This document shows, piece by piece, positions 18,501 through 64,000 of a stretch of 64,000 nucleotides of DNA. Origin of the DNA: a virus; IMG/VR virus record IMGVR_UViG_3300048591_001244, positions 1-64,000 of that record. One strand, written 5' to 3'. The position numbers and the translations under genes are program-made. Position 1 is the stretch's first letter; the number at the start of each line of letters is the position of its first letter. The notes beneath the pieces were generated by a model that was given only the letters and a program-made list of their open reading frames with translations, was not told the DNA's origin and did no database searches.

Positions 18501-21500
18501 TCCTGTTGAGCAAGTTCAGCATCTGTTCCTTTCCACATACGCTGAGCCATAATTTTAGCATAAAGGTCAGGAGAGGCATCTTTCCAGATCATTGCTCTCA
18601 CCCTTGACCAAAAATGTTTCATCCAATTAGAAACCTTGTTAAACAATCCTTTGTTCTGAGATTCTAATTTTACTAATTCTGTTCCAGCCTTACCAATAGC
18701 ATTTACAGCCGCTTCCTCAGAGCCATAATGTGCAAGCAACTTCTTCTTTACAATATCACTATCAGGTAGCATAGCCCAGTAAATATGCGCGTGCTCATGG
18801 AATATAGCTTCTTGGTGAGGCGTGTTAGGATTGATCCAATAGGCATCACCGATGGAAGCACCCCAGGCATTCATGTCAAGCTTCTTTCCCGGAGCGATGA
18901 CATCAATGACTCTCTGGAACTCTTCTGCAGAGAAAGCCTTGACATGAGGGAATAGCTTAGCAAACTTTTTACGCATGATCTCTATCTGCTTAGGATCTGC
19001 AGAAGTGATAGGATCTTCATTCAGATTTTTTGGGCCAATTGTATCTTCAGGGAAATCAATTTGTGACTGTCCTGTAGTCGGTGGCGGTGGAAGATTTAAA
19101 ATAGCATTAAGCTGAGCTTCCCAATTAGGATCAGCCATGTTTATAACAGGAATTCCTTTACGAGAAGCCATTTCATTTGAAGCTGGCCTATTTAAAAATG
19201 GAGAAGCACGCATAACCTCATTTGATAGATTTACTGATTTGTCCTTTTCATAATAGAAAATATCAACACTATTCCATTTGTATTGTATAGTCTCTTTTTT
19301 GCGCTCGAAAATATTATACTTTCCTTTTCTGTTTTCATCCTTGATCTTAACAAAATAAGGAAGTTCATTTATATTCTCTCCTGCCTTGTTCTTAACAACA
19401 TATTTTCTGGAAGAAGGAATATCCTTTCCGTTGATAACAACTCCAGCATAAAGGGTGTCAAACTCAGGAATTAATTCAGGATTATTTATCAAGATATCCC
19501 TTGAAACACTTGTTGCTCCATTAGTAGAATTTAAAAATGAAAGACCTTCAAGTTTTGTCTTTACATCTTTCAATGTCTTGTATGGAAGTATCTCATAGAA
19601 AGAACCTGACCATGGCGCACTTCTCCATCCAAATTCACTAACCAAATATTTAATCAGCATATTCAGATCAGAATCAGGAAGCTCCTTCATCTTGTCTTTC
19701 GCTATTTTCGAGTAGCCAAAATCATCAACATTCTGTTTAGCCTCTTCACTAAGTTCAACTCTCTCATTGACCAGACTGAATGTTAAATATTTTTTCACAA
19801 AACTATCTTCTGGAAACTTTTCAAGCCACTGAGCCACATCATCTTTTAAAGATTCTTTTGACTCTGTGACATTCATAGCTTGAAGCATCAAGAACTTATC
19901 AAATTCATTGTAAATTAAATCATACTGATCTTTTTTTAAGTTTCTTATTCTTTCTTTCCATCCTTCTTCATTGTATGGATTATCAATCAATGACAGCTCT
20001 TTGGCAATTCTATATATCACATGCTGTCCAAAATTTGTTGAAATTGGGTGTGTAGCATAATAAGACCCTGAAATAGCCCTATTGATTTTTGCTCTCACAA
20101 AAGAATCAGAATTGATCATCTCTTGAACCTGACTGTGATTGATAAAACGCAATGGCCTTGAGCCTTCCTTTGGAAACATAATCCGATCATAAGCATGCTT
20201 TCCTTCCATGTACTCTCCATAAGAAAGAGGTCCAGAGGTTGTAAGCTTTAATATCTTATTGATCATCTGTATCTCACTGGAAAGCTTATTCATGGCACTA
20301 AACATTCTCACAATTTTAATCTGAGATGTTATTGAATCACTTTCCATATCATAATCATACAGATCTGGAAGTCTGTTCTTTTGTAAAACCCAAGCATTGC
20401 TATAAAATTCTTTTTGTTCTTCTGTTAATGACTCACCCATTGTTTTAGGAGAGATCATAGCAAGGACAATCTTATCATAAACATCATCACCGTTTCTTCG
20501 ATTACTGACTGAGGTAAAATGTTCATATAATTCAATGAACTTCTTCATTCCCGGAGTATGCATAAATGCAGTAAGACTATCTTCAATCTCAGCATCCAGT
20601 CCTAATAAAGCATCATATTGTCCGGCAGTAGAAGAGAACTTATTCATCATTGACAGCGTACCATTTTTGACAGCATCGGCAGCATGATTCAAATGAGCGT
20701 TCAATACAGAAAACAACTTTTCTTTTTCTCTTGATTCCAGCCTGTTCTTTTCTTCCGTATGAGCACGACCAAGCTGACGAACAAGAGCTTCATCTTTTAC
20801 AAGTTTATTATCTTCATTGTAATAGAAATATTCACTTTCATCCTCTTGATTCTTTTCAATCTCTACATAATAGTTCTTCCCTTTAAACTCAAAAGAATTT
20901 ATTGTGTCCTTATCAACTGTTCTACCCCATCCGGTTAATAGGAATGGAATCTTTTCCCATGTTCTTGACTCAGTATTGAATTTGGGGAAACGAATCTGAG
21001 TAGATAAGTTAATATCATTTGAAGCTAAATTATAAACAACCTTCAGTGCAGAAGCAGTAATTGATATGACATCCTGAGAATCTAAGTTAGCTCGAACCAT
21101 CTTATTCCAGCTACTCGGCATCAACGGATCAAGATTCTTTCCTTCATCATAATACGTTTCCAGATATTCTTTCTTCTCTGCAATAGTCGTCTGCTCAGTA
21201 ATACGATTGAACATATGAGGATCTTCATACGTTTCTTTCATCATTTCAAAGATGCTGTTCATCCGGGACTCATAACTAGAATCCCCTGCAGGAACTTCTT
21301 TTCCTGCCTTGTTCTTATATGGAGCCCAAAGGAATACTGTATCACCATCATGGTCTGATCCGGAATAAACCTGAATTGCGCCATCGGTAACAATAGTATT
21401 TTTCATTGTCGGCGGTAAAAACCCTGCAACTTTAACATAAGAGAAGGAATTCAAATCACCGGTAGGTACGCGAATAATAAATAATCCTTCACCTTCTTCA

Positions 21501-24500
21501 AAGCCATTAGGGTTTTCATCAGACTTCATTGCCGAAGCAGGAAGGTAAACAACAGGACTCTGTACCTCATTTTTCTCTTTGTCAAGCTTGATATGACCTA
21601 AATTCTGTCCTATTACCTTTCCATGAACATACTGAGCCTTTAGTACAACAAAGTCAAGGAGTTTTTTTCTTACCGCGTTCTTCCAGTACTTGTTTACAAT
21701 TCCACGAACAATAGGATCCTGCATTGTTATTACAGACTGCTTGTTCATTTCTTTCAAGGCCATAACATCATCACTCTTTGGATTGATAGTCATGAGCCAT
21801 TTTATAATATCTTCCCCGCTCTTATTTAATACCTCTTGAATTTCTTTTTCTTTTATTAAAGAAGCTTCAGAGAATAATTTATCAATCGCTGCTTTATGCT
21901 TTGTAGACTTTAAAATGTTCAATATCTGAGTAGGAAGGGAACCAAGATTTAACAGACCTTCATTTGTAAGATCAAGTATGACACGGAAATCATCATTCTC
22001 AATGTCTATGTATTTTGGTGCCTCTTTACCAAAGTCAACTTCTTTAATATCCGGACCGCTGGTAGTCCATTTCCAGTCATTGACATTTTCCTCTCCTGTT
22101 ATTTTTGTTCCTGACTTAAATGCAATCCTGTCAATTCCATGTTCTTTAGCATACTCAACAATCTTTTTTGCCATTGGATTCTGTGCATAAAAGATCTTTC
22201 CTTCCTCAGTATGTAAATGAGGATACACAACATCATTAGCTTTTATTAAATGCTCTGAGCCATTGATATGAGTATATGTGAATGCTTTGATAACGCCTGA
22301 GTACATTCCACCGGAACTTATTTCAATCTGGTCATTGAACCAAGGCATCATAATATCACCGCCATCAGGAAGCTCAACTTCCTTGTTCCATACTCCAATG
22401 TCAATAAAGACCTTTGGATCATTAACAATCATCACCCTGTGCGTTTTACCTATTCCTCCAGGTAATCCTTGCAATAAAGTAAGTCCCATACCATGTATCT
22501 TCCTTTTGATAGACATGGCATATGAAAGCTCCCGATCATTCTTACCTCTGAAATACTGATCAGTGTGATACTTGTTGTAAATGTGATTGTAAACAAATTC
22601 TTCGGCAAATTCTCTTGAAGATACTCCGGGATCTGTCATGAACTTTTTGGCAACAAAATTTTCAATCTTTTTTTGCCACATTCCAACTTCCTTGTTAATA
22701 GCTTCAGAAGACTGTTTTGCAGTAGTCTTATTTCTTTTGGCGTGTAACTTGCGTATGCTGTCCTTCTGAGCAGTGGTAAGATTTCTTAACCTCTCAACAG
22801 GGATCATAATCTTAGTGGAGCTATCGGCCTGCTGATCCATTGTAAAAAGATAATTACCCTTTCCTGCCATATGTTCTTTATCAGAATGCATAAAATTGGC
22901 AATGAGCATAATGTCAAAATCAGTACTGTTTAACTTTGACCTCTCTTCTGCAATATTGGTATCAGTATTTTTTACTCCATCAAGCTTAAAGAATTTAATG
23001 GAATCTTTAAACTTTTGGAACCACGGATTATCCTTGTACAGTTTTCTTATATCTTCACGCTTAGCTCTTTTTCCCTGATTTGTAAGAAAGCTATCATATT
23101 CTGTAGAATCCTGATTCTTACCGGTAGCAGTAGTAAACCGTTTGGCAACACCAAGATTTACTGAATATTCAGCAAAGTGCCTTGAGATTGTATCAAGCTG
23201 AGATCCCTTCTCTCCAACTCCTTCATAATAATCTTTTATTGCCTTTGTACTTGTTAAAGCCCTTATGCGACGAAGTTGGTGATAAGATATTTCAGTAGCG
23301 TTGTCTGCTGTTGGAAAAGCTGTCTTTCCTCCAAATGACTGACCATTTATAATTCTATTAGCCAAAAATCTTTCATATGTTTCAAAGCCTTCTTTCTTTG
23401 AATAGTATCTTAAAAAAGCTTCCCACTGACCTCTGTTTTTATGCTGATCAATACCGGTTATCCTCTTCGCTGTTTCTATATCTGCATTGATAAGATCAGC
23501 AACGAAAGAAGATCTGGTAAGAGCATCAATCAAATCTTCCTTTTTTGCAGCCCAGTCAATACCTGTTACATCAGACTTCTTATTTAATTTGCTGATAACA
23601 TATTGCCAATTAAAATGCGTTTTAGCATTTGCTCCGAATTCTTTTTTCAGCAGTTCAATTAAATCCTTGTTTTCTTCTCGAATGAATTTGTCAAGAGCAA
23701 TTAAAATCTTAACTTTCTTTTCGTCATTATTTTGAAGAATAGAACGTATTTCAGTTATACTTATGGAAGCAAGTTTTTTTGCAAGGGACTCTCTGTTCTC
23801 TCTTTTAATCTGTGGCTTAGTGTACCTTGCATTTGATTGTAATGGAACAAATGGCCCTTCATTAGAATTAATGTATAGCAGGTTTACAAAGCGCTGAGAG
23901 CTTTTGTAATGGTTTCTCAAGCGAACAAATCGGTTAAAGTGAAAATCATCTTGGTCTCCATTTCTCCAAACTTCTGCCATTTCTCGAACAGGAAAGAAGT
24001 CAATAAAATACTGCTTGACATCAATTTCATCATCAGGCATCTGATCGACAAGATCTTCTGCCATCTCCATCAATTCATTCCTGGTATATTCACCAACATA
24101 AGGAAGGCTTGTGTTACTATTTATAAATAAACCATATAGCTTCTTTTCATTTTCTGCAAATCGATCTTCAGAATCTGAAAGATTGGCCATCTTTGCAGCT
24201 TCAATTTCATCACTCCAACGTGCCTGAAGAACAGGATCATTATTAACATATTCAGCAATGATAGGATTTCTGATTTCTGTTTTTGAACCATACAAAGCTT
24301 TCAAGCTTATTGTCAAATCAGCTTCTTCTCCTATTGTAAGTTCTTTTCCTGTTTCTTCCCTGTGAAGTTTCTTTGCTTCTATGATAACCCGATCAATTGC
24401 ATCATCGGCAAGTTCAAGCCTTCTCTCTTCTGTAATTTCAATGTTCTTGCTTTTAAGAATACGTAATCCTTTTAGGTAAAGATTATAAGTAAGGTCTAAG

Positions 24501-27500
24501 AGGGCTTTCCATGTGGCAAGACCAACAATTTTAATTACAGCTTGCGGATTATAAAAAAAACCAAGATCTCCGCGGCTCTTTTTAATATTTTTTGCAAGTG
24601 AATCGCTTACTTTTTTTCTTTCTGCATTTATCTTATTAAGAAACGGATCATTCTGTTCTTCTTCAGAAGGCTTCTCAGCTTTGAATTCTGTATCAGGAGT
24701 AATTTTAAATGGATCTTCTGAAACTTCTGTTTTCTCAGGCTCATTTTTAGGCATATGAGAAAAATCAAAATCTCCTATGTTGTTTTCTTGATATCCGGCT
24801 TCTTCTGGACTAAGCTCTCCAAGAATTGACTGTTCAGAATTGCCTCCTTCCTGTTCTTCTGAATAGAATTCATGACGAATTCTGCTGATTCTTTTTTGTT
24901 CTCTAATGGCTTCATTGGCTAATTGTTTTGTTAATTCAATTCCATATTTTGTATATATCTGATCTGAAATTATTTTTGCCGCCCCATAATTATCATGGTT
25001 ATTTGAAAGACTATCTGTTGCCTTTCTTGATGGGTTGTCAAAAATAAAACGGATTAAATAATCTATTGTGTATTCAGGATATTTTACTTCAAGGTTTTCA
25101 TCTTCAAATAAATCGATATTTGAATTGTCTACTTTTTTACTCCCATACTTATCAATAAGCTTTTCTTTAACCGATGAATACTTTTCAGATTCTGATTTTA
25201 ATATTACAAGATCTGACTTCTTCAAATTCTTTTCTAAAACCCAACGCTTTTTAAATTCACTAAATTCTATGGGGCTCATGTCTCTAATATAATTTAAGTC
25301 TCCATGTCTTTGAAAACTTAAAATACTAAACGCAGGAGCATTTTCAGCTAAATAAAAATCAAGTCCTGTTTTTCTTCCAGACTCTACATTTTCTTGTTCT
25401 TTTTTAATATTTAGATATCCAATAATCCAATCGATTAAATTAGGACTTTTTATTGTAGATTCTGCAGAAGCTTCATGTGAACTGTTTTCTGGACGCTCAA
25501 ATTGATAAGATTCGTCATATTTTGCCCAGGCAATATTTTTTATTGCTTCGATTTCATAAATCTCTTTTAATGTATTATAAAGAGAACCCTTATCATATAC
25601 ATATCCGCTTTTAAAATTTTTGAAAATGAGTTTTTCACTATTCCAGTAAGCTCCAAAGGCAACATTTTTGTGATATATTTTTACGTGATCTGTTTGAGAT
25701 AATACATTCAAATATTTATTTTTTAACTTTTCCTTTCTTTCCTTAAAGTTTTTTTTCTTTGGCTCGGATATTATTTTCGCTTCCTTTTTTTCTTGAGGTA
25801 CAACCGGTTCAGCTTTATCTTCTTTTTTCTCCGTCTCATTCTCTTGAAGTTTTAGTCCTAACTGATTTTTGAAGTAAGCAAGGTCATCACTGATGAAAGC
25901 ACCGGACTTTTGCTCATGACGCTGATTGTAAAAAACCTTGCTATTTGTAACCTCTCCCTTGTTATTCAAAAGGTACAGGTATGACAAGCCCAGTTTTTTC
26001 TGAACAGGTTTTTTTGTTCTCTCCGGAATAAACTCTCCTTGAGAATCTACAATATCAGAAGTGGCAAACAGATAATTGTTACCATGCTTATCTGTTAATT
26101 TATATACTGGCAATGACTTAGAGTGAGCAAGTGTTAATGTTGTATTTCCTTCTTTGTCTGTAACCTTTATCTCTCCCCCTGGAATCTCTAACATTCCATT
26201 GACAATTTTCAATGGTGCTTTTTTAACAGTTTCCTTTGAAGGGATTTCAAGATTTAATGAAGGATCAGGCTTTGCAGTTTTATTTATTCCAAAGAATTTG
26301 AGAATTTTTTCTTTGGTGTTAAGCTTTTTGGAAACCTGACTTAATGATGTTTTATGTTTTTTAGGATCAAACAATCGAGCGGCACGATGCTGTTTGGTCA
26401 TATGAGTAACCTCAGTATCATCTGTCTCTTTTTCTATTTCTTCTATTTTTGAATCTCTTTCTTTCTGAATTTTTTCCAACTCTTCATCATGAGCAAAGAC
26501 AGAGATGGCACCTTCGTCATAATCCTTTTTAAGCTTAGCGATTTTAACTTCAGCTGTATCACGAGCTAATTTTTTACGATCGTTTATATCGTCCTCTTTT
26601 GTCTGCTTAGGAGCAGGCTTTTCGTCATTCAGTTCAGCATTGATCTGATCAAGAACATCTTTTTCATCTTGCACCTTTCTCTGTTGAATATCAGAAACGC
26701 GTTTTATTTCCGCTTCATAGTCTTCATTACTAATAGGTGTACCTTCTTGCTGACGTTTTTCTGCATGTCTTTTAATTCCTTCAAGAACTTTCTTTCTGGT
26801 ATTTTCAGCTTCAGTTACCTTTATCTCCTGTAAGTTTTTTGCTCGAACAAGTTCTTCTTTACGTACAGCTTTTTTAGCTTCTTCATCTTCACCCTTGACC
26901 TCAAAAGTTAAATCATCAGAAATGGTAAATGGCTTTTCTTCTGGCTCTCCTTCTTTTATTACCTCAGAAGTAGCCGCCGGGGTTTCCGAAGTTGTTACAG
27001 GTCCCTTAGTTTCTGCTTCTGACGAAACTGCTTGCTCTTCAGATTTAGATTCTTCCTTCTTTTCTTCAGTAGGTTTGGTAGCTTTGGCAACAATACCATC
27101 AATTTTCTTCTGCCAATGTTTAACTTGATCCTCATAAGCTTTTATTTTTGCAGAAGTATATGGATTGGCAACTTCATTTGCTGACAACTCTTCAACTTTT
27201 GCTTTCGCTGAATTTTGATTCCACAGAGCTTCAAAAAACTCTGCTTTATCTTCCGTCTGAATTTTTAAATCATCCTTTTTTATCTCGTCATGATATTGCT
27301 TATAGAATCTTATTTTGTTTACAGCATTATTGTACTGCTCGTCAGTAAGCCTACCTTGATCATGTACTTTTTTAAGCTGACTTTCTAATAAAGCTTCATT
27401 GCCCGTTTCTATGTGACGATAGATCTCTTCATTTTGACTACGCTCTCTTTGAGGAGAAACAGTTCCACCAAAAGCACCACCCATAAATCCACCTAAGATG

Positions 27501-29122
27501 CTCTCATACAATTCTGCCTGCTCCTTCTTTCCCATCATGACAGTACCATATTTGTTACCATCATGACCCATGTTGTCATACATAACCTGCATGTACTGAG
27601 AGAACAATGTCTGAGATCCTTCTTCAATTCCTTCTCCAACAGCTTCTTTTACAGCATTCTTACCATACAAAGCAAGATTTAATGCAGTATGCTTAATGGT
27701 AGCATTGAACAGACCATTCATTGACGTGGGATTAGGAACATCTACCCCTATTGTTAATTGTTCTTTTAATGCTGTCTTAACAGATTTTCTTTTTGTAGCC
27801 ATATCTTCAGCTACATCTTTGAATATCTTACGTTTGTTCAAAAGCCTTAATTCCTGACCACCGATCATTATCTCCATAGCACCTACACCAATTGCCGTAG
27901 CAGCTGTAAATGCATATCCTGCACGTCCTTTAATGCCTGCCTGCCTTGCAGCTTCTGAGGCTTCAGATAAGCTTATCATAGAAGAAACAAGCCAAGACTC
28001 TTTATTTTTAAATGGACTGTTGGCTACAAGTTTCTGAGCTATTGAAGCAGGCTTTGCTGTCAGTGCAGCAATTTCATCTCCTGCCTGAGCAGCTTTCCCG
28101 GAACCAGAGATAGCTCTGGCAACACCGGCACCACCAATAAATTGAGCCAACGATCCAACAACATCACCCATCAGGCGAACCATATTCTGAGGATTTGGAG
28201 TAAACTCAACATCTCCATCTTCTCCTACGCCAAATACAGATTTGCTTGCATCTTCATGAGTGTCAAATTTCATGTTGTCAACATGAGCAATGAAATCTTT
28301 CATCCAGGAAGAATCTTCTCCTGTTGTCAGTCCATAGAAAAGATTTGCAACTTCCGGAACAGTCTTACCGACATTAACAAAACTATTGTAAATCGACTTG
28401 CCTAATGTCGTTGCAGGGTTATCATCATCTGCACTTAGCTGATTGCCAAAAGTGCTTTCTATTTTTGCTCCTGGCGGGGGCAATTCTCCAACACCTAAAG
28501 CGATGGCTTTTCCATCTGCATCAAAATAATATCTCTTTTGATCGGTAGCGGCACCTTTTATTCCACCATAAAGACCACCGGCGGCCGCGGCAATACCTAC
28601 TCCTGCAGCTCCTACCGGTCCAAAGCTTGATGCTAACCCTGTAGCAACACCTGTTGTTGTGGCTCCGGTGACAAGACCTTCCATGAAACGGGAAAACATG
28701 GTATCATCTTGTTGCTTGGGATCAAGTCCCTGCATGACTTTAGCTGTCTGAATATAGTCTTCTGAATCAAAAGTATAAGCAGCCCATTTGAGATATTGCT
28801 TTTCATCATCATTGACATTCTGGTATCTGTCGATCTGATTGTCAATCTCTCGCTTTTTAGCAATTAATGGAGTAATCTGACTTCCGTATTTATACACCTG
28901 ACCAAAATCAGTAAGAGGCTTAACTTTTACATCTGCCCCAGATTCAATAATTTCATCTAATGGAATTCCCTTTTCTCTTATTTGAGAAACAAGATCTTGA
29001 TTGAAATCATCTTCTTCTTTTGTTTTAAAAACAACACCATTAGCTTCTAAGTCATCAATGCTATAAGCCTGACCACTTTTTAAAGTTAAAGGGTGATTGT
29101 TATTTTCCTCTGGTTTTGGCAT
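15593..29122 (-). CDS. Virion-packaged single-subunit (double-psi-barrel) RNA polymerase polyprotein
   Basis: 4509 aa; IRVP...GSDHDGD metal-binding motif (21341-21355); zincin-like HEHAH (18785-18799); hydrophobic Gly/Ala-rich N-terminal segments; crAss-like gene context. Confidence 0.85.
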   Translation of the reverse strand: MPKPEENNNHPLTLKSGQAYSIDDLEANGVVFKTKEEDDFNQDLVSQIREKGIPLDEIIESGADVKVKPLTDFGQVYKYGSQITPLIAKKREIDNQIDRYQNVNDDEKQYLKWAAYTFDSEDYIQTAKVMQGLDPKQQDDTMFSRFMEGLVTGATTTGVATGLASSFGPVGAAGVGIAAAAGGLYGGIKGAATDQKRYYFDADGKAIALGVGELPPPGAKIESTFGNQLSADDDNPATTLGKSIYNSFVNVGKTVPEVANLFYGLTTGEDSSWMKDFIAHVDNMKFDTHEDASKSVFGVGEDGDVEFTPNPQNMVRLMGDVVGSLAQFIGGAGVARAISGSGKAAQAGDEIAALTAKPASIAQKLVANSPFKNKESWLVSSMISLSEASEAARQAGIKGRAGYAFTAATAIGVGAMEIMIGGQELRLLNKRKIFKDVAEDMATKRKSVKTALKEQLTIGVDVPNPTSMNGLFNATIKHTALNLALYGKNAVKEAVGEGIEEGSQTLFSQYMQVMYDNMGHDGNKYGTVMMGKKEQAELYESILGGFMGGAFGGTVSPQRERSQNEEIYRHIETGNEALLESQLKKVHDQGRLTDEQYNNAVNKIRFYKQYHDEIKKDDLKIQTEDKAEFFEALWNQNSAKAKVEELSANEVANPYTSAKIKAYEDQVKHWQKKIDGIVAKATKPTEEKKEESKSEEQAVSSEAETKGPVTTSETPAATSEVIKEGEPEEKPFTISDDLTFEVKGEDEEAKKAVRKEELVRAKNLQEIKVTEAENTRKKVLEGIKRHAEKRQQEGTPISNEDYEAEIKRVSDIQQRKVQDEKDVLDQINAELNDEKPAPKQTKEDDINDRKKLARDTAEVKIAKLKKDYDEGAISVFAHDEELEKIQKERDSKIEEIEKETDDTEVTHMTKQHRAARLFDPKKHKTSLSQVSKKLNTKEKILKFFGINKTAKPDPSLNLEIPSKETVKKAPLKIVNGMLEIPGGEIKVTDKEGNTTLTLAHSKSLPVYKLTDKHGNNYLFATSDIVDSQGEFIPERTKKPVQKKLGLSYLYLLNNKGEVTNSKVFYNQRHEQKSGAFISDDLAYFKNQLGLKLQENETEKKEDKAEPVVPQEKKEAKIISEPKKKNFKERKEKLKNKYLNVLSQTDHVKIYHKNVAFGAYWNSEKLIFKNFKSGYVYDKGSLYNTLKEIYEIEAIKNIAWAKYDESYQFERPENSSHEASAESTIKSPNLIDWIIGYLNIKKEQENVESGRKTGLDFYLAENAPAFSILSFQRHGDLNYIRDMSPIEFSEFKKRWVLEKNLKKSDLVILKSESEKYSSVKEKLIDKYGSKKVDNSNIDLFEDENLEVKYPEYTIDYLIRFIFDNPSRKATDSLSNNHDNYGAAKIISDQIYTKYGIELTKQLANEAIREQKRISRIRHEFYSEEQEGGNSEQSILGELSPEEAGYQENNIGDFDFSHMPKNEPEKTEVSEDPFKITPDTEFKAEKPSEEEQNDPFLNKINAERKKVSDSLAKNIKKSRGDLGFFYNPQAVIKIVGLATWKALLDLTYNLYLKGLRILKSKNIEITEERRLELADDAIDRVIIEAKKLHREETGKELTIGEEADLTISLKALYGSKTEIRNPIIAEYVNNDPVLQARWSDEIEAAKMANLSDSEDRFAENEKKLYGLFINSNTSLPYVGEYTRNELMEMAEDLVDQMPDDEIDVKQYFIDFFPVREMAEVWRNGDQDDFHFNRFVRLRNHYKSSQRFVNLLYINSNEGPFVPLQSNARYTKPQIKRENRESLAKKLASISITEIRSILQNNDEKKVKILIALDKFIREENKDLIELLKKEFGANAKTHFNWQYVISKLNKKSDVTGIDWAAKKEDLIDALTRSSFVADLINADIETAKRITGIDQHKNRGQWEAFLRYYSKKEGFETYERFLANRIINGQSFGGKTAFPTADNATEISYHQLRRIRALTSTKAIKDYYEGVGEKGSQLDTISRHFAEYSVNLGVAKRFTTATGKNQDSTEYDSFLTNQGKRAKREDIRKLYKDNPWFQKFKDSIKFFKLDGVKNTDTNIAEERSKLNSTDFDIMLIANFMHSDKEHMAGKGNYLFTMDQQADSSTKIMIPVERLRNLTTAQKDSIRKLHAKRNKTTAKQSSEAINKEVGMWQKKIENFVAKKFMTDPGVSSREFAEEFVYNHIYNKYHTDQYFRGKNDRELSYAMSIKRKIHGMGLTLLQGLPGGIGKTHRVMIVNDPKVFIDIGVWNKEVELPDGGDIMMPWFNDQIEISSGGMYSGVIKAFTYTHINGSEHLIKANDVVYPHLHTEEGKIFYAQNPMAKKIVEYAKEHGIDRIAFKSGTKITGEENVNDWKWTTSGPDIKEVDFGKEAPKYIDIENDDFRVILDLTNEGLLNLGSLPTQILNILKSTKHKAAIDKLFSEASLIKEKEIQEVLNKSGEDIIKWLMTINPKSDDVMALKEMNKQSVITMQDPIVRGIVNKYWKNAVRKKLLDFVVLKAQYVHGKVIGQNLGHIKLDKEKNEVQSPVVYLPASAMKSDENPNGFEEGEGLFIIRVPTGDLNSFSYVKVAGFLPPTMKNTIVTDGAIQVYSGSDHDGDTVFLWAPYKNKAGKEVPAGDSSYESRMNSIFEMMKETYEDPHMFNRITEQTTIAEKKEYLETYYDEGKNLDPLMPSSWNKMVRANLDSQDVISITASALKVVYNLASNDINLSTQIRFPKFNTESRTWEKIPFLLTGWGRTVDKDTINSFEFKGKNYYVEIEKNQEDESEYFYYNEDNKLVKDEALVRQLGRAHTEEKNRLESREKEKLFSVLNAHLNHAADAVKNGTLSMMNKFSSTAGQYDALLGLDAEIEDSLTAFMHTPGMKKFIELYEHFTSVSNRRNGDDVYDKIVLAMISPKTMGESLTEEQKEFYSNAWVLQKNRLPDLYDYDMESDSITSQIKIVRMFSAMNKLSSEIQMINKILKLTTSGPLSYGEYMEGKHAYDRIMFPKEGSRPLRFINHSQVQEMINSDSFVRAKINRAISGSYYATHPISTNFGQHVIYRIAKELSLIDNPYNEEGWKERIRNLKKDQYDLIYNEFDKFLMLQAMNVTESKESLKDDVAQWLEKFPEDSFVKKYLTFSLVNERVELSEEAKQNVDDFGYSKIAKDKMKELPDSDLNMLIKYLVSEFGWRSAPWSGSFYEILPYKTLKDVKTKLEGLSFLNSTNGATSVSRDILINNPELIPEFDTLYAGVVINGKDIPSSRKYVVKNKAGENINELPYFVKIKDENRKGKYNIFERKKETIQYKWNSVDIFYYEKDKSVNLSNEVMRASPFLNRPASNEMASRKGIPVINMADPNWEAQLNAILNLPPPPTTGQSQIDFPEDTIGPKNLNEDPITSADPKQIEIMRKKFAKLFPHVKAFSAEEFQRVIDVIAPGKKLDMNAWGASIGDAYWINPNTPHQEAIFHEHAHIYWAMLPDSDIVKKKLLAHYGSEEAAVNAIGKAGTELVKLESQNKGLFNKVSNWMKHFWSRVRAMIWKDASPDLYAKIMAQRMWKGTDAELAQQDFRNLTLNYMKRTNTGPVFQDHQEKIDDLIKKINEKRENKIKSLSEIEHTDITRNAFSEIIRRGAQNFWQAAIERITGKQIQLADSKEFEIMAAGFTPIPGNNDYVYNEQFARVPYAGAMEPGFQMIRPIDKDTFSKDRVGIRYIDLIQNDENENLAKKVTKEYQEYLSDMIESAKLLSNRYTDESKLELLDKDAAVDIANDLSRLKAKYNSRGMNMKSDSLAYFDTVDTIITSYATAHLFTQEIKNEVDSKNDKNRVFIKALHEIFDPRDVKDLTTHNSWVGKDNVIAPFAAHLKSGSAAVALRNQIIQRAEFEANNAQAEIKHLLSPIYKKLKDLKVTKKEMTDMDTNTSVFYFVHPSGPGYPASENYQKLKGKTDEKSKAIIEFADTYASLLNNYAPKEVIATGEKMFQVNYAEATGTELSKKLGWFTAFMHQFFGQSKYDRLHIMVPEFDEPVTLKNYKRTLKERQKIGGADKKSKRQYYLALRKATETARKMYDSTSPMDAANEPIIRTDAKSMFHSLYKEDSGTRSRDIFTPAMHFLHQGAFVRALGDNLLVMEFTENYATTYNAKGKNVARFIKQLNDWQLYGIKPESKLPHNVEIVTKFLIEYTGLKFMALNFGAATMNLFGGITQNVRDLGFRKTFIGVMRTFGSVKPGTNWKTAFLDSKIVNIMQQQRILEINHDWTTADSSDNYGFIKQLLFSPTAFVEFFNHSMTIAGSMSQKQWDAYKHDGTVKDGHKGMTADQIIKLISEAQDIHGSYHRLAKRIAASTTEGRAIMQLRTWMFDIYDVHAMSERFAGTSDKKLKGIVRTVGDIGGGTFKYLEVLAKEKDHEKAKKMFYALKPVDQENLRKLAREATMMLLISMLIAGFGDDDKETYTSLNRMWGDVAVVYDIDNYIYTFQGGLPVFSTIVDALKMMKGLAENGFYGPLVYEKDTKYGKKGDSKVPMMVVNTLPMEKVIKKFMEEK

Positions 29123-58365: not shown

Positions 58366-58812
58366 ATGAAAATTGAGTCCTTTAGTTATGACGAATTGAG
58401 AGTTAACCATGAATTGTTTGATAATAAAATGGGCAAGTCACATGAGATCTTTAATATTGATTCGGAGCGTTATAAGTTGATAACCGATGCTATTTCAGTC
58501 CGGGCTAATAAGATTGTGGATACCCTACAAAAAGCTTCTGATTCAAAATCTGTACAAGAAAAGACAGATCTGCTCAAGCCGTATTTTAATGAACTCACCT
58601 TACCGGTTGTCATGACAGATCACTTACTTAAAAACAGTGAGGTGAAGTATGAGTCTGTAGAAGAGTTCTTTGTTGCTGTCCTATTGTGCGGTCAATTTTT
58701 TACTCAGACCAATCAAACTATGTCCAATAATCCTTCTGTTGCAATAACCATTAATCTAATAAACGTTGAAAACCTTTTGGAGACAAAGAAAGGAGAAGTC
58801 AATGAACAGTAG
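58366..58812 (+). CDS. Hypothetical protein
   Basis: 148-aa ORF after an A-rich leader. Confidence 0.7.
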   Translation: MKIESFSYDELRVNHELFDNKMGKSHEIFNIDSERYKLITDAISVRANKIVDTLQKASDSKSVQEKTDLLKPYFNELTLPVVMTDHLLKNSEVKYESVEEFFVAVLLCGQFFTQTNQTMSNNPSVAITINLINVENLLETKKGEVNEQ

Positions 58813-59148
58813 AGAATTGAAAGTACAATCAAAGTATGTCCATGAGGTCCGGCCGGTGTATATCAAGGAGGCAACGAGATCTTTCAGCTATACCACCATA
58901 CTACCGGATCCATTTCCGGTGTGCAGGTAGATATCAGGATGGTCCTTGCCCTGGCATTATCATGTGGTGCATATGCAATGATTCTTACCCATAATCACCC
59001 ATCCGGAAGGACATACCCTTCGGAAAGTGACAAAGAGATCACTAAGCAATTTGCCGATGCTGCAAAATTACACGATATCAAGATCCTCGATCATATTATC
59101 GTCTCACAAGAAAGCTATTATTCCTTCGCTGATGAAGGAGAGCTGTAA
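58802..59148 (+). pseudogene. radC: RadC-like JAB-domain gene with internal deletion and frameshift
   Basis: HNHPSG...PSESD...ILDHII...YYSFADEG in one frame; N-terminal MNSRELKVQSKYVHEVRPVY in another; junction at ~58865. Confidence 0.7.
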
Positions 59149-59167
59149 ACCTTAAAATCAAAATGCT

Positions 59168-59392
59168 ATGACCAAACAAGAACAAATGAAAAGAATTCTG
59201 GTTTTTATTCGATTTCATACTGATATGCAGAATTTAGACAGAATAAGCCATATTGATTTAGATAGACTCGTTGCTTTCATCTTGCAATCGCTATATAATG
59301 AAAATCCAGCATTGGCTGTATCTGCTTCTGAAGAATTGAATTTTACCAGAACAAAGAAAACCTATGTTAACAATCTAAATCGACGATCATGA
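59168..59392 (+). CDS. Hypothetical protein
   Basis: 74-aa ORF. Confidence 0.55.
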   Translation: MTKQEQMKRILVFIRFHTDMQNLDRISHIDLDRLVAFILQSLYNENPALAVSASEELNFTRTKKTYVNNLNRRS

Positions 59393-59640
59393 CAAAAATT
59401 AATCAAGAACTAATACATACCCTCTCAGCTTCAGAAGCTCAGGAAGGTATTGTTGAAATTGAAAAACTAATGGCTAAGCATCAAGAGGTCTGCTCTCGTA
59501 TCAGTACTGATATGGAGCCGGAAGAACTGTTCTACCTACGAATAGAAGCTGCCATGACTGAAAGAGAGCTGCTTGTGGCTAAGAAAAAGATGAGACAACA
59601 AATGAAACGCAAACAAGTTCTCGGGGAGGTGTCATGTTAG
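59389..59640 (+). CDS. Hypothetical protein
   Basis: 83-aa ORF, ATGA overlap. Confidence 0.6.
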   Translation: MTKINQELIHTLSASEAQEGIVEIEKLMAKHQEVCSRISTDMEPEELFYLRIEAAMTERELLVAKKKMRQQMKRKQVLGEVSC

Positions 59641-59719
59641 ATATCCAACAATCACCGCAGAAACGAAAAGCGAGGAAGCAATTATAGGATTAAAACTGCA
59701 AGACAGAAAAAATGCAAAG

Positions 59720-59844
59720 TACGTGCCGCAGCTAAACGCTGTTGGCGATTTGAAATACGAAATTATCAATCTAAAAATAAAGTAACAATGGAAAACGAAA
59801 ATTTGAATACATCAGAAGCCGCCAATAGCGATTTAGGTGCTGTT
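59720..59844 (+). repeat. attC-like hairpin 1 (left core degenerate, TAC)
   Basis: Arms 59728-59747 GCAGCTAAACGCTGTTGGCG and 59820-59840 CGCCAATAGCGATTTAGGTGC; GTT at 59842. Confidence 0.7.
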
Positions 59845-60078
59845 AGTGGCAGTAGGGATTCTCAGGAAGATTGGTATGATGATGAATATTACGAGGGACA
59901 GCCGCACGAGGATTGCCCTAAATGTGGTAGAAGCTATGACCATATTGATTTTGATTACCAAAGCTGCTCTAAATGCGGCTGGGATGCTGAAAATGAAAAA
60001 TGGACAGAAGCCCGTGAGCCATCTGATGATGATTATTTAAATGGGGGTGCGGACATTCTTACTGGAAGGTGGTATTAG
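59788..60078 (+). CDS. Cassette protein with two CxxC pairs (zinc ribbon)
   Basis: CPKC...CSKC; ATG lies in the loop of hairpin 1. Confidence 0.7.
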   Translation: MENENLNTSEAANSDLGAVSGSRDSQEDWYDDEYYEGQPHEDCPKCGRSYDHIDFDYQSCSKCGWDAENEKWTEAREPSDDDYLNGGADILTGRWY

Positions 60079-60088
60079 TATTGCCACT

Positions 60089-60212
60089 AACGTGTTTGCG
60101 CTTGGCGCAGTGGCGGATTTCGGAGCGAAAAACTTTCAAACCACCACTAAAGCTGATGCGAGGCACAATGTTGAATTAACCACTAAAACCGCCATTGAGC
60201 CAAACGCATGTT
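60089..60212 (+). repeat. attC-like hairpin 2
   Basis: AAC 60089-60091; arms 60097-60116 and 60189-60208 (17/20 complementary); GTT at 60210. Confidence 0.8.
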
Positions 60213-60386
60213 ATGCTCTCGTTGCGGTTCATTAAGCAGAACTTTCAATCGAAGCAAGGTGTTTTTAATCTTTTTTTGTGCGGTGGTCAAAAAAATATCA
60301 ACATTGAAAATCAGCACTTTAGAGATAATAATACAAATAAGTGAAAAATATTTGTAAAAATGCTTGGTGGTTACAAATAAGCGGCT

Positions 60387-60394
60387 TATATTTG
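60387..60394 (+). promoter_or_regulatory. Cassette-internal TAnnTTTG promoter
   Basis: TATATTTG with CTTG ~24 nt upstream, ahead of the ATG at 60426. Confidence 0.65.
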
Positions 60395-60425
60395 TACTGT
60401 CATTAACAATCAAAATAACAAGAAA

Positions 60426-60851
60426 ATGAAAAATTTAATCAAAAACACAATCATCAGACAAGCAATCGAATTAGGTTTTGACTTTGAACAATTCACTAAC
60501 GATGCAGATTTGCAAGAAGTAAGCGAAGCACTTATGGACTTCTTTAACGAAAATTCAGACAAGTTGCCAAAACTTGAAGATGCGTGCGAAGTAACAAGCA
60601 ACGGAAGAACACAACACGTAAGCTATGGCGATTTTTGGTCTGATGGAGAGATAGTTAATTTTTCAGACAACTGGCACAAATCACCTGAAACAAAAGTTTT
60701 TCACTCTGATTTTGTAATGGAAGATACTGACGGATTGATGAAAAATATGAACTTGTATTATTTAGTTGGCGAAACTGATTACAACGCACCTGACGGCTAC
60801 TATTACAGCAAAAGCGAAAAAAGACACGTAAAAGAAGAAGAAAATGCGTAA
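60426..60851 (+). CDS. Acidic hypothetical protein
   Basis: 141-aa ORF. Confidence 0.7.
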   Translation: MKNLIKNTIIRQAIELGFDFEQFTNDADLQEVSEALMDFFNENSDKLPKLEDACEVTSNGRTQHVSYGDFWSDGEIVNFSDNWHKSPETKVFHSDFVMEDTDGLMKNMNLYYLVGETDYNAPDGYYYSKSEKRHVKEEENA

Positions 60852-61059
60852 GATTTTTCACTTAGAAATCAAATCGGAAAGCTCCCATAAATACTACGGG
60901 AGCTTATCCGCTTTATGCTCTGAAAACCCAAATTTGGGTATTTCAAAATTCACACTTGACAGATTTGATTTTACAGAACCTTTTGAAAATGCAACTTGCA
61001 TTATCCGAAAATCAGTAATGAAAACTACTGGAAGCGTGGGAGAAAAAGTTAAATGGTAA
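60844..61059 (+). CDS. Small putative DNA-binding protein
   Basis: HKYYGSLSALC...LGISKFTL, HTH-like. Confidence 0.6.
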   Translation: MRKIFHLEIKSESSHKYYGSLSALCSENPNLGISKFTLDRFDFTEPFENATCIIRKSVMKTTGSVGEKVKW

Positions 61060-61166
61060 ATTAGAGAACAACACGAATTTAATTATTAAGTAAAAAACGC
61101 TCACTTTAGCAGTACGCCCCTGCTTTTGTATAGCGTATGTTATAGGGCGTTTTTAATTTAATCAAA

Positions 61167-61361
61167 ATGAGAACAGTAGAAGTGACAGTAACTTACAAGT
61201 ATGAGCTTGAAATTGACGACAACAACGAGATTGTCAAAGAGTATGAAAGCGAAAACGAATTATTGGTGGATTGTGCCACTTATCGTTTCTCAACAGGATT
61301 ACCTGTAATTGGTGATGGTGGGGTAAAAGTTAAGGATGTCGAATTGGTCGAGGTTTCTTAA
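61167..61361 (+). CDS. Cassette hypothetical protein
   Basis: 64 aa; bounded by inverted repeat 61139-61152 / 61360-61373. Confidence 0.7.
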   Translation: MRTVEVTVTYKYELEIDDNNEIVKEYESENELLVDCATYRFSTGLPVIGDGGVKVKDVELVEVS

Positions 61362-61370
61362 ATGCCCTAT

Positions 61371-61493
61371 AACGTAAAAGTATAAAAGCAGGTGGGGATT
61401 GAACGGCAAACACGTTTCGACTTGCACAAAACTAAATAAACAGCCGAGGTGGTTAAAAATAGCACATAACCCCACTTGATTTTATACAGTGTT
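61371..61493 (+). repeat. attC-like hairpin 3
   Basis: AAC 61371-61373; arms 61380-61397 GTATAAAAGCAGGTGGGG and 61470-61487 CCCCACTTGATTTTATAC; GTT at 61491. Confidence 0.8.
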
Positions 61494-61510
61494 GTGTGCA
61501 GTTATTTATT

Positions 61511-61831
61511 ATGTTTAAATTACATTATGCAAGTTTAGATTTAGGGAATAATGATATTCCTTGTTTTGAGTTCAAAAAACATTCTCAAATGGTTGATTTT
61601 ATTGATGAAAAATGTATCAATAGAAATGGAAAAGTTGTTTGGCTTTTGGCTAAAGAAGATTTTACAGATGTTTTTATTTCTGAAAATCATTTAAGTATTC
61701 AGGATTTTTTAAGTAAAAAAGATTGCTGGCAAACAACTGGTAATTATTTTCTTCAAGAATATACAAGTTTTGAAGATGCTTATCGTGTCGCATTAGATAT
61801 GTCAGAAATTAGTCCGCTGTGTTATTCATAA
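61511..61831 (+). CDS. Cassette hypothetical protein
   Basis: ATG at 61511; bounded by inverted repeat 61491-61505 / 61828-61842. Confidence 0.7.
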   Translation: MFKLHYASLDLGNNDIPCFEFKKHSQMVDFIDEKCINRNGKVVWLLAKEDFTDVFISENHLSIQDFLSKKDCWQTTGNYFLQEYTSFEDAYRVALDMSEISPLCYS

Positions 61832-61845
61832 TTGCACACAACATC

Positions 61846-62118
61846 ATGAACAACTATCGCTCAATTGACAAAAAAACACCTGAAGTTGTTGACAATACAA
61901 CAAATGATACATATCCTAAAACCCTATACATTCGAAATGAAGTGGGAGGAATGGTGTGGCAAGTATATCATGTTAATAACATAACAGAAGCTCTCAATCT
62001 CGTTAAAAATGCTGTTAAAAATGGATTTTATGGCAACCATACATTAGAAGACCATACAAATGAAACAGAAACATGGCCTGATTGGAGAAAAACAGCACAT
62101 CCAGACATCTTTAAATAA
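61846..62118 (+). CDS. Hypothetical protein
   Basis: In-frame ATG at 61846 of the 61819 ORF. Confidence 0.6.
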   Translation: MNNYRSIDKKTPEVVDNTTNDTYPKTLYIRNEVGGMVWQVYHVNNITEALNLVKNAVKNGFYGNHTLEDHTNETETWPDWRKTAHPDIFK

Positions 62119-62126
62119 CATAAACC

Positions 62127-62495
62127 ATGAAAATAAAAGACATACTAAAGAAATACCTTCCTTATCACATAGTAAAAGAAATAACAGAAGCTATGAAATC
62201 ACAGGGAAGAGGACACGAGCTAAATCGCTTTAATTATGCGGTAAAATCACCACATTCAATAATAGGGCTTTCATTTGAATGGGCTATAAAAAACTACTTG
62301 AATAAAAATGACATCTATAAAGATGATAGTGACTTTCAGGATATCATTATTAATTCTTTCTATAATCAACACAATGAAGAAGAAGGTCGGCTAGATGTAA
62401 ATGACAATCCCTGGAAAGACAAATTAGATTATGTACATAATCACTTCGAATTATTCTGTCAGTATGCACAAAATAACTGGAGAAAGATTAAATAA
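62127..62495 (+). CDS. Hypothetical protein
   Basis: 122-aa ORF. Confidence 0.65.
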   Translation: MKIKDILKKYLPYHIVKEITEAMKSQGRGHELNRFNYAVKSPHSIIGLSFEWAIKNYLNKNDIYKDDSDFQDIIINSFYNQHNEEEGRLDVNDNPWKDKLDYVHNHFELFCQYAQNNWRKIK

Positions 62496-62564
62496 AATAA
62501 ATTTCATCCCTCGCATCTTGGTCGGTGCGGGGGATTTATAGACGGATGGAAAACTGAAAGTAAC

Positions 62565-62960
62565 ATGATAACAGAGACAAAAGAAATATATAAGTGCGAC
62601 CATTGTAAAAAGATGTACCAAAGAAAGTCGGCTTGCATGAGGCACGAAGATGTTTGTTTTAAAAGCCCTGATTTTTTAAGACCATGCCATAGTTGCGTGA
62701 ATCTTGAAAAGAGAACCACAACCGTATTTAGCGGACGTAGTGATGAAAACGGCAATGAATATGAAATGACCGTAAACCTTATGTTCTGTAAAAAAAGAGA
62801 CTGCTTCATTCATCCACATAAAGTAGCGGTAAAGGGAAATGCTTTCGAGACTGGAGATAAAGAAAATATTGAAATGCCAAAAGAGTGTGAATTTTATGAA
62901 AATGAATATGCGTATGTGTTAAAAGACAATCTAACCCCAACCCATGAAAACCACCCCTGA
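62565..62960 (+). CDS. Cys-rich zinc-finger-like hypothetical protein
   Basis: YKCDHC...C..HE..C...CHSC. Confidence 0.7.
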   Translation: MITETKEIYKCDHCKKMYQRKSACMRHEDVCFKSPDFLRPCHSCVNLEKRTTTVFSGRSDENGNEYEMTVNLMFCKKRDCFIHPHKVAVKGNAFETGDKENIEMPKECEFYENEYAYVLKDNLTPTHENHP

Positions 62961-63405
62961 CTACTTCAACGAAATAAAATGCCCGATTGTTAGGCGCAGG
63001 GCGATAAGGAATTGCGATGAACCTGAAAAACAAGAGAGTAGTCTAAAATGGGCAATTCATGGAGGCTTCGTCTGGAGAGAAACTCCTGAAGGTGTTGCAT
63101 ACTGGAGTGAGGTTTACGAAAACCCACTCGCCCCATCCCCAGAACATCTACTACCTGATGGGTACAGGGAGGAGGCCGAGCCAAACTTGACGTTAGCAGC
63201 AGTAACGGATTTAAAAATGGAACATTCAAAACAAGAAAAAGAAATTTACGAATTAGCAGAACTTTTGATGCAGTCTGAAAACTTAGAAGCAAGTGCAACT
63301 ATCCTTCGTGATTTTGCTGAAAAATGTTACCAAGAAGGTGCAATAGATGCTCAAAATGATGCGGCAAAAGAAATACGTGAACACTATGTAGAAGGTGGTC
63401 GGTAG
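62944..63405 (+). CDS. Chimeric hypothetical protein (resident N-half plus cassette C-half)
   Basis: FVWRETPEGVAYW domain, then a cassette boundary at 63192 and an internal ATG at 63217. Confidence 0.6.
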   Translation: MKTTPDYFNEIKCPIVRRRAIRNCDEPEKQESSLKWAIHGGFVWRETPEGVAYWSEVYENPLAPSPEHLLPDGYREEAEPNLTLAAVTDLKMEHSKQEKEIYELAELLMQSENLEASATILRDFAEKCYQEGAIDAQNDAAKEIREHYVEGGR

Positions 63406-63416
63406 TTATTGCTGCT

Positions 63417-63542
63417 AACGCCCAAGCAGCTTTGCGTTCGGTGGCGTTTTTAAACCGAACGCTTCACTTAATAACAAAATTTGATATGGAAAAAAATGTA
63501 ACAACCAACACCTACCCACAGCATGACGCAAAACTGCCTGTT
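63417..63542 (+). repeat. attC-like hairpin 4
   Basis: AAC 63417-63419; GCAGCTTTGCGTTC (from 63426) pairs with GACGCAAAACTGC (to 63537); GTT at 63540. Confidence 0.75.
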
Positions 63543-63701
63543 AGCGGTAGTTATTATTGGTATTGTCGATTCACTTTCAAAGGAGATAAATGTGATTTAT
63601 ACCTTACAGAAAGAAACAACTGCAAAACATTTAAGGAACTTCGTAGATGGTGGAGAAAAGAGAAACCAAACTTAAAACTTCTGTCAGCGGTCAGGAAATA
63701 A
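63486..63701 (+). CDS. Cassette hypothetical protein, start inside hairpin 4
   Basis: MEKNVTTNTYPQHDAKLPVSGSYYWYC...; inverted repeat 63540-63555 / 63697-63712. Confidence 0.6.
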   Translation: MEKNVTTNTYPQHDAKLPVSGSYYWYCRFTFKGDKCDLYLTERNNCKTFKELRRWWRKEKPNLKLLSAVRK

Positions 63702-63709
63702 TTTCCGCT

Positions 63710-63853
63710 AACAAGCTGGTATGTGCTGTGCCAGCCACAAAATTAATAATCACGGCACTAACTTAACAGGCATAGCATATACCGTTTTCGGGCTTGGCGT
63801 TCGGTTTTGTGCGTAGGGCTTGTGGGTGGCAAAACTGACGCAAAACCCGTGTT
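63710..63853 (+). repeat. Two fused attC-like hairpins (5a and 5b)
   Basis: Arms 63718-63732/63769-63783 and 63789-63809/63830-63849; AAC at 63710, GTT at 63851. Confidence 0.75.
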
Positions 63854-63947
63854 ATATGAAGGTGGGATTTTCACGCACTACACTCGATTAGAAGCACGTA
63901 AAAAGAAAAAGAAAAAATGAGCGTGGGAAACAATTAAATCATTTAAA

Positions 63948-64000
63948 ATGCAAAAGAACATTTTATTATTTGACGTAGAAAGCACAAGTTTACACGGAAC
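63948..64000 (+). CDS. Partial DEDD-family 3'-5' exonuclease (N-terminus)
   Basis: MQKNILLFDVESTSLHG is an ExoI D-x-E motif; truncated by the window end. Confidence 0.55.
   Translation, partial: MQKNILLFDVESTSLHG

Follow-up and report, generated by a model that had tools for sequence, protein, structure and literature searches.

The cassettes of the phage array described here share one fixed flaw. When the left end of a cassette is set against the reverse complement of its right end, position 11, counted from the G of the terminal GTT, reads G against A in six of six cassettes of the window (the whole 64,000-nt stretch of viral DNA that we analysed). Judged from sequence, selection maintains the resulting wobble within an integron-like recombination site, where it probably tells the strand that folds and recombines from its complement; it is likely to act in recognition or in the choice of strand. 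The region would be a row of integron-like gene cassettes on a phage without a recombinase of its own, and the activity of this particular array is putative. We hold it rather probable that the explanation is right as a whole, namely an integron-like cassette array in which the wobble is a selected strand mark, likely read by an Xer-like recombinase.

An earlier note on this DNA had reported the G/A pair for five complete cassettes and had seen the G of a sixth at 63851, and our reading agrees for all six, including the partner of the sixth, which lies beyond the window (Table 1). Its statement that four pairs have no other mismatch is correct within 12 nt; cassette 6 has an additional T/A mismatch at position 9. 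Pairing of the arms restarts past position 11 and reaches position 13-16, depending on the cassette, and in cassette 7 all of the first 16 nt pair except position 11. The triplets AAC and GTT are present in all six. Exact 10-nt inverted pairs headed by GTT number 5 in the 4.7-kb stretch of the array versus 5 in the remaining 75 kb, and the G/A pattern occurs in none of the latter five, which excludes chance. Cassette 2 had been left out of the earlier note's count of complete cassettes.

Table 1. Features of the array in window coordinates, with the 12-mer ends of the cassettes (direct reading for cassettes 1 and 3 to 7; right ends as reverse complement)
Feature	Coordinates	Strand	Details or basis	12-mer ends
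Hairpin a0, first array site	59727..59841	+	fold, sequence, ORF list	
Cassette 1 left arm (GTT...)	59842..59856	+	position-11 G at 59852	59842 GTTAGTGGCAGT
Cassette 1 right arm (...AAC)	60077..60091	+	position-11 T at 60081	60080-60091 GTTAGTGGCAAT
Hairpin a1 core, AAC to GTT	60092..60209	+	5-nt spacer, imperfect 20-bp stem, 1-nt spacer	
Cassette 2, two ORFs	60210..61072	+	decayed ends	GTTATGCTCTCG vs GTTGTTCTCTAA
Hairpin a2, short	61073..61138	+	fold	
Cassette 3	61139..61373	+	arms 61139-61153 (G 61149), 61359-61373 (T 61363)	61139 GTTATAGGGCGT; 61362-61373 GTTATAGGGCAT
Hairpin a3 core	61374..61490	+	fold	
Cassette 4	61491..61842	+	G 61501, T 61832; positions 1-10 and 12-15 pair	61491 GTTGTGTGCAGT; 61831-61842 GTTGTGTGCAAT
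Cassette 5	63192..63419	+	G 63202, T 63409; positions 1-10 and 12-15 pair	63192 GTTAGCAGCAGT; 63408-63419 GTTAGCAGCAAT
Hairpin a5 core	63420..63539	+	fold, sequence	
Cassette 6	63540..63712	+	G 63550, T 63702; positions 12-16 pair; position 9 T/A	63540 GTTAGCGGTAGT; 63701-63712 GTTAGCGGAAAT
Hairpin a6, compound	63713..63850	+	fold	
Cassette 7, left part	63851..64000	+	G 63861; continues to genome 64526	63851 GTTATATGAAGG; genome 64515-64526 GTTATATGAAAG

Seven hairpin sites and zero recombinases are found across the 79 kb of the phage, and no match to the tyrosine recombinase family PF00589 occurs in the complete phage. The first site is not preceded by the canonical AAC and reads GTAC instead. 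Hairpin a1 belongs to a type that is also present in Flavobacterium phages and Bacteroidota genomes. Cassette 4 has no hairpin downstream and cassette 5 none upstream, and two reading frames begin in hairpin loops, that of cassette 1 at 59788 (hairpin a0) and that of cassette 6 with the ATG at 63486 (hairpin a5). A related-locus search with 58366-58812 as the query, aimed at close relatives of the phage in which the site might be empty, returned none.

For a larger sample, we assembled 172 unique cassettes (33 viral and 139 bacterial) from 33 sources, all Bacteroidota phages and bacteria, with 98 of the 172 coming from a single genome and one array spanning at least 362 kb. Only the hairpins on either side and agreement at positions 4-9 served to select cassettes, leaving positions 10 onward unconstrained; the AAC and GTT triplets are a requirement of the finder, and their invariance in this set is no evidence. 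A repeat viral scan with a 3'-arm motif yielded just seven more loci with arrays. Position 11 is matched in 0 of the 130 ungapped cassettes and is G/A in 127 of them, rising to 163 of 172 once a 1-nt bulge is allowed. This mismatch rate of 100% compares with 1-7% at positions 4-9 (93-99% matched) and 2-14% at positions 12-15, where matching is 98, 98, 92 and 86% versus 43, 33, 28 and 48% with shuffled partners; from position 16 onward, matching is at the background level. The refuting condition that the earlier note had set, a position-11 mismatch no commoner than those beside it, does not hold in this set. The flanks vary between cassettes and the mispair does not: positions 4-10 carry 101 different heptamers, which extends the covariation that the earlier note had described and bears out its view that the mispair is under selection. 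The mark persists among the 74 cassettes outside the dominant genome: 57 are ungapped G/A and 12 more read C/A at position 11, a reading that arises where a single additional T in the GTT arm displaces the G/A by one. An unpaired or bulged T adjoins the wobble on the same arm in about 40% of cassettes; in 31 cassettes a bulged T lies in the outer arm, opposite the AAC arm.

Of the viral cassettes 30 of 33 keep the mark, and of the bacterial ones 133 of 139, even though the reading frames lie on the wobble strand in 24 of 25 viral cases and on the opposite strand in 34 of 35 bacterial ones. Equal conservation under opposite ORF strands excludes a coding or mRNA cause, and we rejected on this ground a coding artefact arising from a Val-Ser-Gly-Ser junction and right-arm stop codons. 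The polarity given in the earlier note (G·T for one strand and C·A for its complement) stands; its label of the G·T strand as the top strand does not carry beyond phages, for in bacterial arrays the wobble falls on the strand that does not code.

The hairpins themselves are asymmetric, with a 5-nt spacer on the AAC arm versus 1 nt between arm and stem on the GTT side (149 of 152 main-class hairpins). Their stems contain fixed 1x1 mismatches (C·A, G·T) and no bulges, and the loop is variable. In computed folds of 206 rebuilt complete sites, the wobble-bearing strand is the more stable in 200, by a mean of 4.9 kcal/mol, with the caveat that nearest-neighbour DNA parameters handle G·T only roughly. 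The gap arises from several positions, not position 11 alone. At stem position 5 of the core, this same strand also has a fixed C·A mismatch (117/152), so not all fixed mispairs favour the wobble strand.

Breakpoints between paralogous units indicate where exchange may occur. In the 362-kb array, such units share the upstream hairpin (identity 0.9-1.0) and not the downstream one (about 0.5-0.65), their identity begins and stops within AAC(G), and the phage loci are consistent with sharing of the upstream hairpin in 5 cases versus 0. Each unit consists of one body and one site, and units are co-oriented within arrays. We infer a crossover at AAC, on the side of the 5-nt spacer, which places it on the strand with the G·T wobble. 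The earlier suggestion of strand selection gains from this, as crossover position and folding energies both point towards exchange of the G·T strand. Position 11 itself was considered as the crossover point and rejected, since pairing restarts at positions 12-15 of the same cassette and the breakpoints fall at AAC.

The mobile unit would then be a hairpin and the body that follows it. In an excised circle or a single strand folded in vivo, the two ends of the unit would come together as a 15-bp arm at the hairpin's base. In the strand whose putative crossover triplet, 5'-AA^C, sits beside the 5-nt spacer, position 11 would form a T·G wobble and leave the arm unbroken; on the complementary strand it would be a C·A mismatch that cuts off the outer five pairs. 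A selected mark of this kind would let one strand only form a complete arm. The wobble lies 10 nt, about one helical turn, from the presumed scissile bond, and an Xer-like recombinase without the IntI insertion probably reads it directly as well. The recombinases beside related bacterial arrays are of this type: they are Xer-like, can be aligned with XerA (4a8e) over their full length, have 19 residues in the stretch that spans 62 in VchIntIA, lack the IntI-specific insertion (I2) and score below the TIGR02249 cut-off (178-211 versus 265 bits).

It is conceivable, if unlikely in our view, that the mispair acts through thermodynamics only, biasing extrusion or folding of one strand without ever being read, its fixed position being historical. 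The 4.9 kcal/mol asymmetry in 200 of 206 sites would suit such a role, as would the scattered, stability-acting G:T mispairs of classical attC sites (PMC5027507). Stability, however, would be served by a mispair anywhere in the arm and of either polarity, and we observe one position and one polarity in 95% of cassettes, with neighbouring positions turning over freely; the unpaired or bulged T alongside in about 40% also resembles a local structural motif. Less likely again is a site that never folds, with double-stranded binding arms in which position 11, a T:A pair in the AAC arm and a C:G pair in the GTT arm, only tells left from right, much as dif has unlike XerC and XerD arms. An Xer-like recombinase, the fixed identity of both position-11 bases beyond mere mismatch, and an inner arm that is often CATAAC / GTTATG, hence dif-like, speak for it. 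A reader of duplex DNA, though, needs no covariation between the ends, and positions 4-10 and 12-15 covary; moreover, a GTT side 1 nt from the hairpin stem leaves no 6-8-bp central region.

We give little credence to an RNA feature, in which a G·U in the stem of the cassette transcript would serve processing or translational control. G·U is a standard RNA pair, phage genes are encoded on the wobble strand and two ORFs begin within hairpins, but the transcripts of 34 of 35 bacterial cassettes would hold C·A instead with the mark equally conserved, and an Rfam scan of 59000-64000 with E-values up to 1 matched no family. Slightly less credible even than this is a functionless by-product of cassette origin or mutation (hairpin deamination, for example), or an artefact of chance or ascertainment. 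No observation speaks for it. A neutral process would give a mixture at position 11, and G-C or A-T occurs there in 0 of 130 ungapped cassettes; the choice of cassettes by hairpins and positions 4-9 alone and the background matching with shuffled partners likewise argue against it.

Beyond the selected strand mark, we tentatively entertain a more specific proposal, possible but short of probable: that the T·G wobble, often beside an unpaired T, selects the strand in an as yet undescribed recombination system of Bacteroidota and their phages that works on single-strand hairpins and in which an Xer-like enzyme with an N-terminal extension reads the outer-arm wobble in place of using an IntI insertion. 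If true, this would be a second, independently built form of integron-type gene capture, which phages use with the genes reversed. An invariant and easily mutated single wobble would offer a handle on the recognition of folded DNA by a simpler Xer-like enzyme, and the signature GTT-N7-G ... T-N7-AAC with covarying flanks could be used to find such arrays. Standard integron surveys seem to miss them in Bacteroidota and their phages; IntegronFinder 2.0 reports almost no integrons in Bacteroidetes. We found no paper on a fixed position-11 wobble in the literature.

Strand choice sets the orientation of each captured cassette, and classical integrons make it through extrahelical bases that the IntI insertion recognises. 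The earlier note had drawn on this system, and the resemblance to classical attC/IntI (PMC5027507; PMC2727003) is real in several respects: an imperfect hairpin with invariant AAC/GTT triplets at its base, two cassette ends that pair together, one gene and one site per unit in co-oriented arrays, a crossover in AAC (here suggested by breakpoints) and recombination of the more stable, G:T-bearing strand (here presumed). Classical bottom strands are enriched in G:T mispairs that favour folding and recombination (PMC5027507). The site is nevertheless not a classical attC recombined by IntI: the phage carries no integrase, and the Xer-like recombinase of related arrays lacks the IntI insertion. 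Nor is the mispair an extrahelical base, being a wobble within a 15-bp stem. That arm is twice the classical 7 bp and more, the mispair is outside the 7-bp R box, as had been noted, and it is fixed in place and polarity, whereas classical mispairs are scattered. The core RYYYAAC / GTTRRRY is absent: in 162 cassettes, position 4 is always a purine (162/162), 88 have T or C at position 5, and all bases occur at positions 6-7, so the GTTRRRY consensus is lost beyond position 4. The 5 x 1 asymmetric spacer differs from the roughly symmetric unpaired spacer and extrahelical bases of attC, and its unpaired 5 nt lie on the AAC arm, opposite to the arm of the classical extrahelical bases, which leaves the analogy incomplete. 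In class 1 integrons, G/A occurs at position 11 in 0 of 9 cassettes and a normal pair in 5 of 9, a control of nine cassettes whose ends were read by hand from annotated plasmids, as the hairpin finder misses class 1 attC.

The layout fits a CALIN (at least two sites close together without an integrase), with putative attC-type sites, and phage CALINs likewise form a row of hairpin-site cassettes on an integrase-less phage (Qi et al. 2023, PMC9892861). Polaribacter phage P12002L, whose host is flavobacterial, is among their carriers, and their sites were called by classical attC models and assayed with IntI1; that paper mentions no Flavobacterium or crAss-like phages, extended arm or fixed wobble (PMC9892861). 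With Xer/dif (XerA 4a8e, XerC/D), the array shares recombinases that align with XerA throughout their length, and a wobble near the outer edge of a would-be 11-bp Xer-type arm. A dif site, however, is double-stranded, with two 11-bp arms flanking a 6-8-bp centre, a layout that the 1-nt spacing on the GTT side does not allow, and the arm strands here would meet only through folding or circularisation.

The virus record is complete (79,204 bp, with direct terminal repeats), and the window covers its bases 1-64000. Small ORFs follow one another on the plus strand, and six of them are flanked by inverted ends that start with GTT and finish with AAC. Counting from the G of GTT, the left end has G at position 11 and the right end, read as its reverse complement, has A there ("G/A"); this holds in all 6 phage cassettes. 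Four end pairs have no other mismatch inside 12 nt, and pairing starts again past that position; the cassette 7 arms pair over 16 nt, position 11 being their sole mismatch. Folding places imperfect hairpins of 66-138 nt, bordered by AAC and GTT, between the cassettes. Rfam yielded no family for the cassette region and Pfam no assignment for the cassette ORFs, and a profile search of the complete record found no tyrosine recombinase at E-values up to 1. The array borders are as expected if whole units had been inserted at a secondary site; we found no relative of this phage with an empty site. The stretch that separates cassette 4 from cassette 5 may be an insert, either decayed or not of cassette origin.

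Features of the phage array and of related loci, with their coordinates
Feature	Coordinates	Observation
Single large ORF of this phage	15593-29122	4509 codons, minus strand
Row of small ORFs	59.7 kb to genome position 64,526	plus strand
Array start	window 59720-59730	GTA/C ahead of hairpin a0
ORF started in loop	window 59788-60078	starts in preceding hairpin loop; crosses GTT as Val-Ser-Gly-Ser
Hairpin a1	60092-60209	
Stretch between cassettes 4 and 5	61843-63191	1.35 kb, several ORFs, hairpin on neither side
Terminator-like stem	~62500-62535	inside that stretch
ORF started in loop	window 63486-63701	as for 59788-60078
Repeats bracketing the cassette 7 ORF	window 63890-63917; genome 64450-64490 (L001, a stretch of this phage's genome, 5450-5490)	19-nt purine-rich inverted repeat, direct repeats GAGCGTGGG and AAATCATTT; ORF weakly matches RNase H-like family phrog_2259
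Array end	genome 64524-64540	AAC without a hairpin behind
ORF started in loop, phage 6H	L002 5743-6011	as for 59788-60078
Array of G001, a complete Bacteroidota chromosome	G001:C1:3620001-3990000 (L199-L216, L195)	many paralogous cassettes of ~510 nt; one end ~3.3 kb from a Xer-like recombinase gene, the other continues past the stretch
Chryseobacterium plasmid NZ_CP041688.1	L336 11956-22077	recombinase gene, then cassettes; an IS110 element and a group II intron break up some of them

Hairpin a1 shows ~71% identity to Flavobacterium psychrophilum phages, and phage 6H has the same layout as the phage array. A search with the hairpin-arm motif led to ~20 related viral contigs and many Bacteroidota genome contigs. 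Our hairpin finder required AAC, then 40-175 nt, then GTT, plus an inner stem, and nothing else; it gave several matches in each related locus, none in unrelated GC-rich loci, and at least 197 co-oriented hairpins across 362 kb of G001. To define cassettes, we paired the GTT end behind a hairpin with the AAC end ahead of the following hairpin, without demanding complementarity; of 275 adjacent end pairs, 213 agree at five or six of the positions from 4 to 9. After deduplication and a second viral scan, the final set held 172 unique cassettes from 33 sources.

In this larger set, the mismatch that the earlier note had reported as invariant in the window proves both real and general: allowing a one-base bulge, G/A is found in 163/172 cassettes (viral 30/33, bacterial 133/139), among which positions 4-10 carry 101 different heptamers. 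It is also much commoner there than at the adjacent positions, contrary to the outcome that the earlier note had named as its refutation. Among 130 ungapped cassettes, the ends match in 93-99% at positions 4-9, in 72% at position 10 and in 0% at position 11 (127 being G/A); matching then returns to 98, 98, 92 and 86% at positions 12-15 (43, 33, 28 and 48% with shuffled partners) before falling to background from position 16 onward. Three arm forms occur among the first 162 cassettes: a 15-bp stem with a clean wobble (88), a wobble adjoined by a T·T mismatch at position 10 (30), and a GTT arm with an extra base, mostly T, separating positions 9 and 10 (35).

Paralogous G001 cassettes at different array places keep the preceding hairpin (identity 0.9-1.0) and not the following one (~0.5-0.65, the background level). 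Similarly, for near-identical hairpins in phage loci, the downstream flank is kept and the upstream flank changed in five pairs, the reverse in none. The mobile unit is therefore a hairpin plus the body after it. This also accounts for the ORF starts at 59788 and 63486, which lie inside hairpin loops: the hairpin moves with the following body, start codon and gene forming one unit. At the nucleotide level, paralogue identity starts and stops inside AAC(G), on the side of the 5-nt spacer. Since a tyrosine recombinase cleaves the strand leading from its arm into the spacer, the exchanged strand would be the one with 5'-AAC adjoining the 5-nt spacer, which carries T·G at position 11.

When a complete site was rebuilt for each cassette from right arm, own hairpin and left arm, the wobble strand had the higher stability in 200 of 206 sites, with a mean advantage of 4.9 kcal/mol. 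The hairpin core has two further fixed mispairs, a G·T on the wobble strand at stem position 14 (113/152) and a C·A at stem position 5 (117/152), the latter pointing the opposite way; the asymmetry therefore does not come from position 11 alone. The mark may act through readout by a protein, through strand energetics or through both. An effect of coding or of RNA is ruled out as its cause. Taking hairpin polarity from the spacers (5 nt behind AAC, 1 nt ahead of GTT), we found the longest ORF on the same strand in 24/25 viral cassettes (L007-L065) and on the opposite strand in 34/35 bacterial ones (L069-L198); conservation of the mark is equal in the two sets. Median cassette length is 308 nt in phages versus 811 nt in bacteria.

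In three bacterial genomes, the array is preceded, on the strand of the cassette genes, by a gene for a tyrosine recombinase, 368-406 codons long; ahead of a fourth array lies what is left of such a gene, in broken form. On the XerA/integron-integrase model (cut-off 220), these recombinases reach 202-211 bits; on the integron-integrase model (cut-off 265), they reach 178-211 bits, in two blocks. Comparison with solved structures gives an end-to-end alignment with XerA (4a8e) and a two-block alignment with VchIntIA (2a3v), in which 19 residues face the integrase's 62; the recombinases therefore lack the IntI-specific insertion. They carry an N-terminal extra of ~90-125 residues. On plasmid NZ_CP041688.1, a 42%-identical Xer-like recombinase gene has cassettes of this kind behind it.

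CALINs have already been reported in phages (PMC9892861), and IntegronFinder 2.0 found next to nothing in Bacteroidetes. In the literature searched, we found no description of the fixed place and polarity of the wobble, the 15-bp arm or the Xer-like partner. The principle that G:T mispairs favour the recombined strand is already known: classical attC sites recombine as a folded bottom strand, cleaved between A and C of AAC, with extrahelical bases on the arm facing AAC, and this strand is richer in G:T mispairs (1.24 vs 0.39), which aids folding (PMC5027507). The classical control was a set of nine class 1 cassettes carried by four plasmids; their ends, read directly, pair over 7-12 nt, with a normal pair at position 11 in 5/9 and G/A in 0/9. 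The earlier note's proposal of a selected recognition or strand-selection determinant is partly supported: the position-11 mark is selected, polar and located on the predicted exchanged strand, and the system itself is integron-like, not a classical integron.
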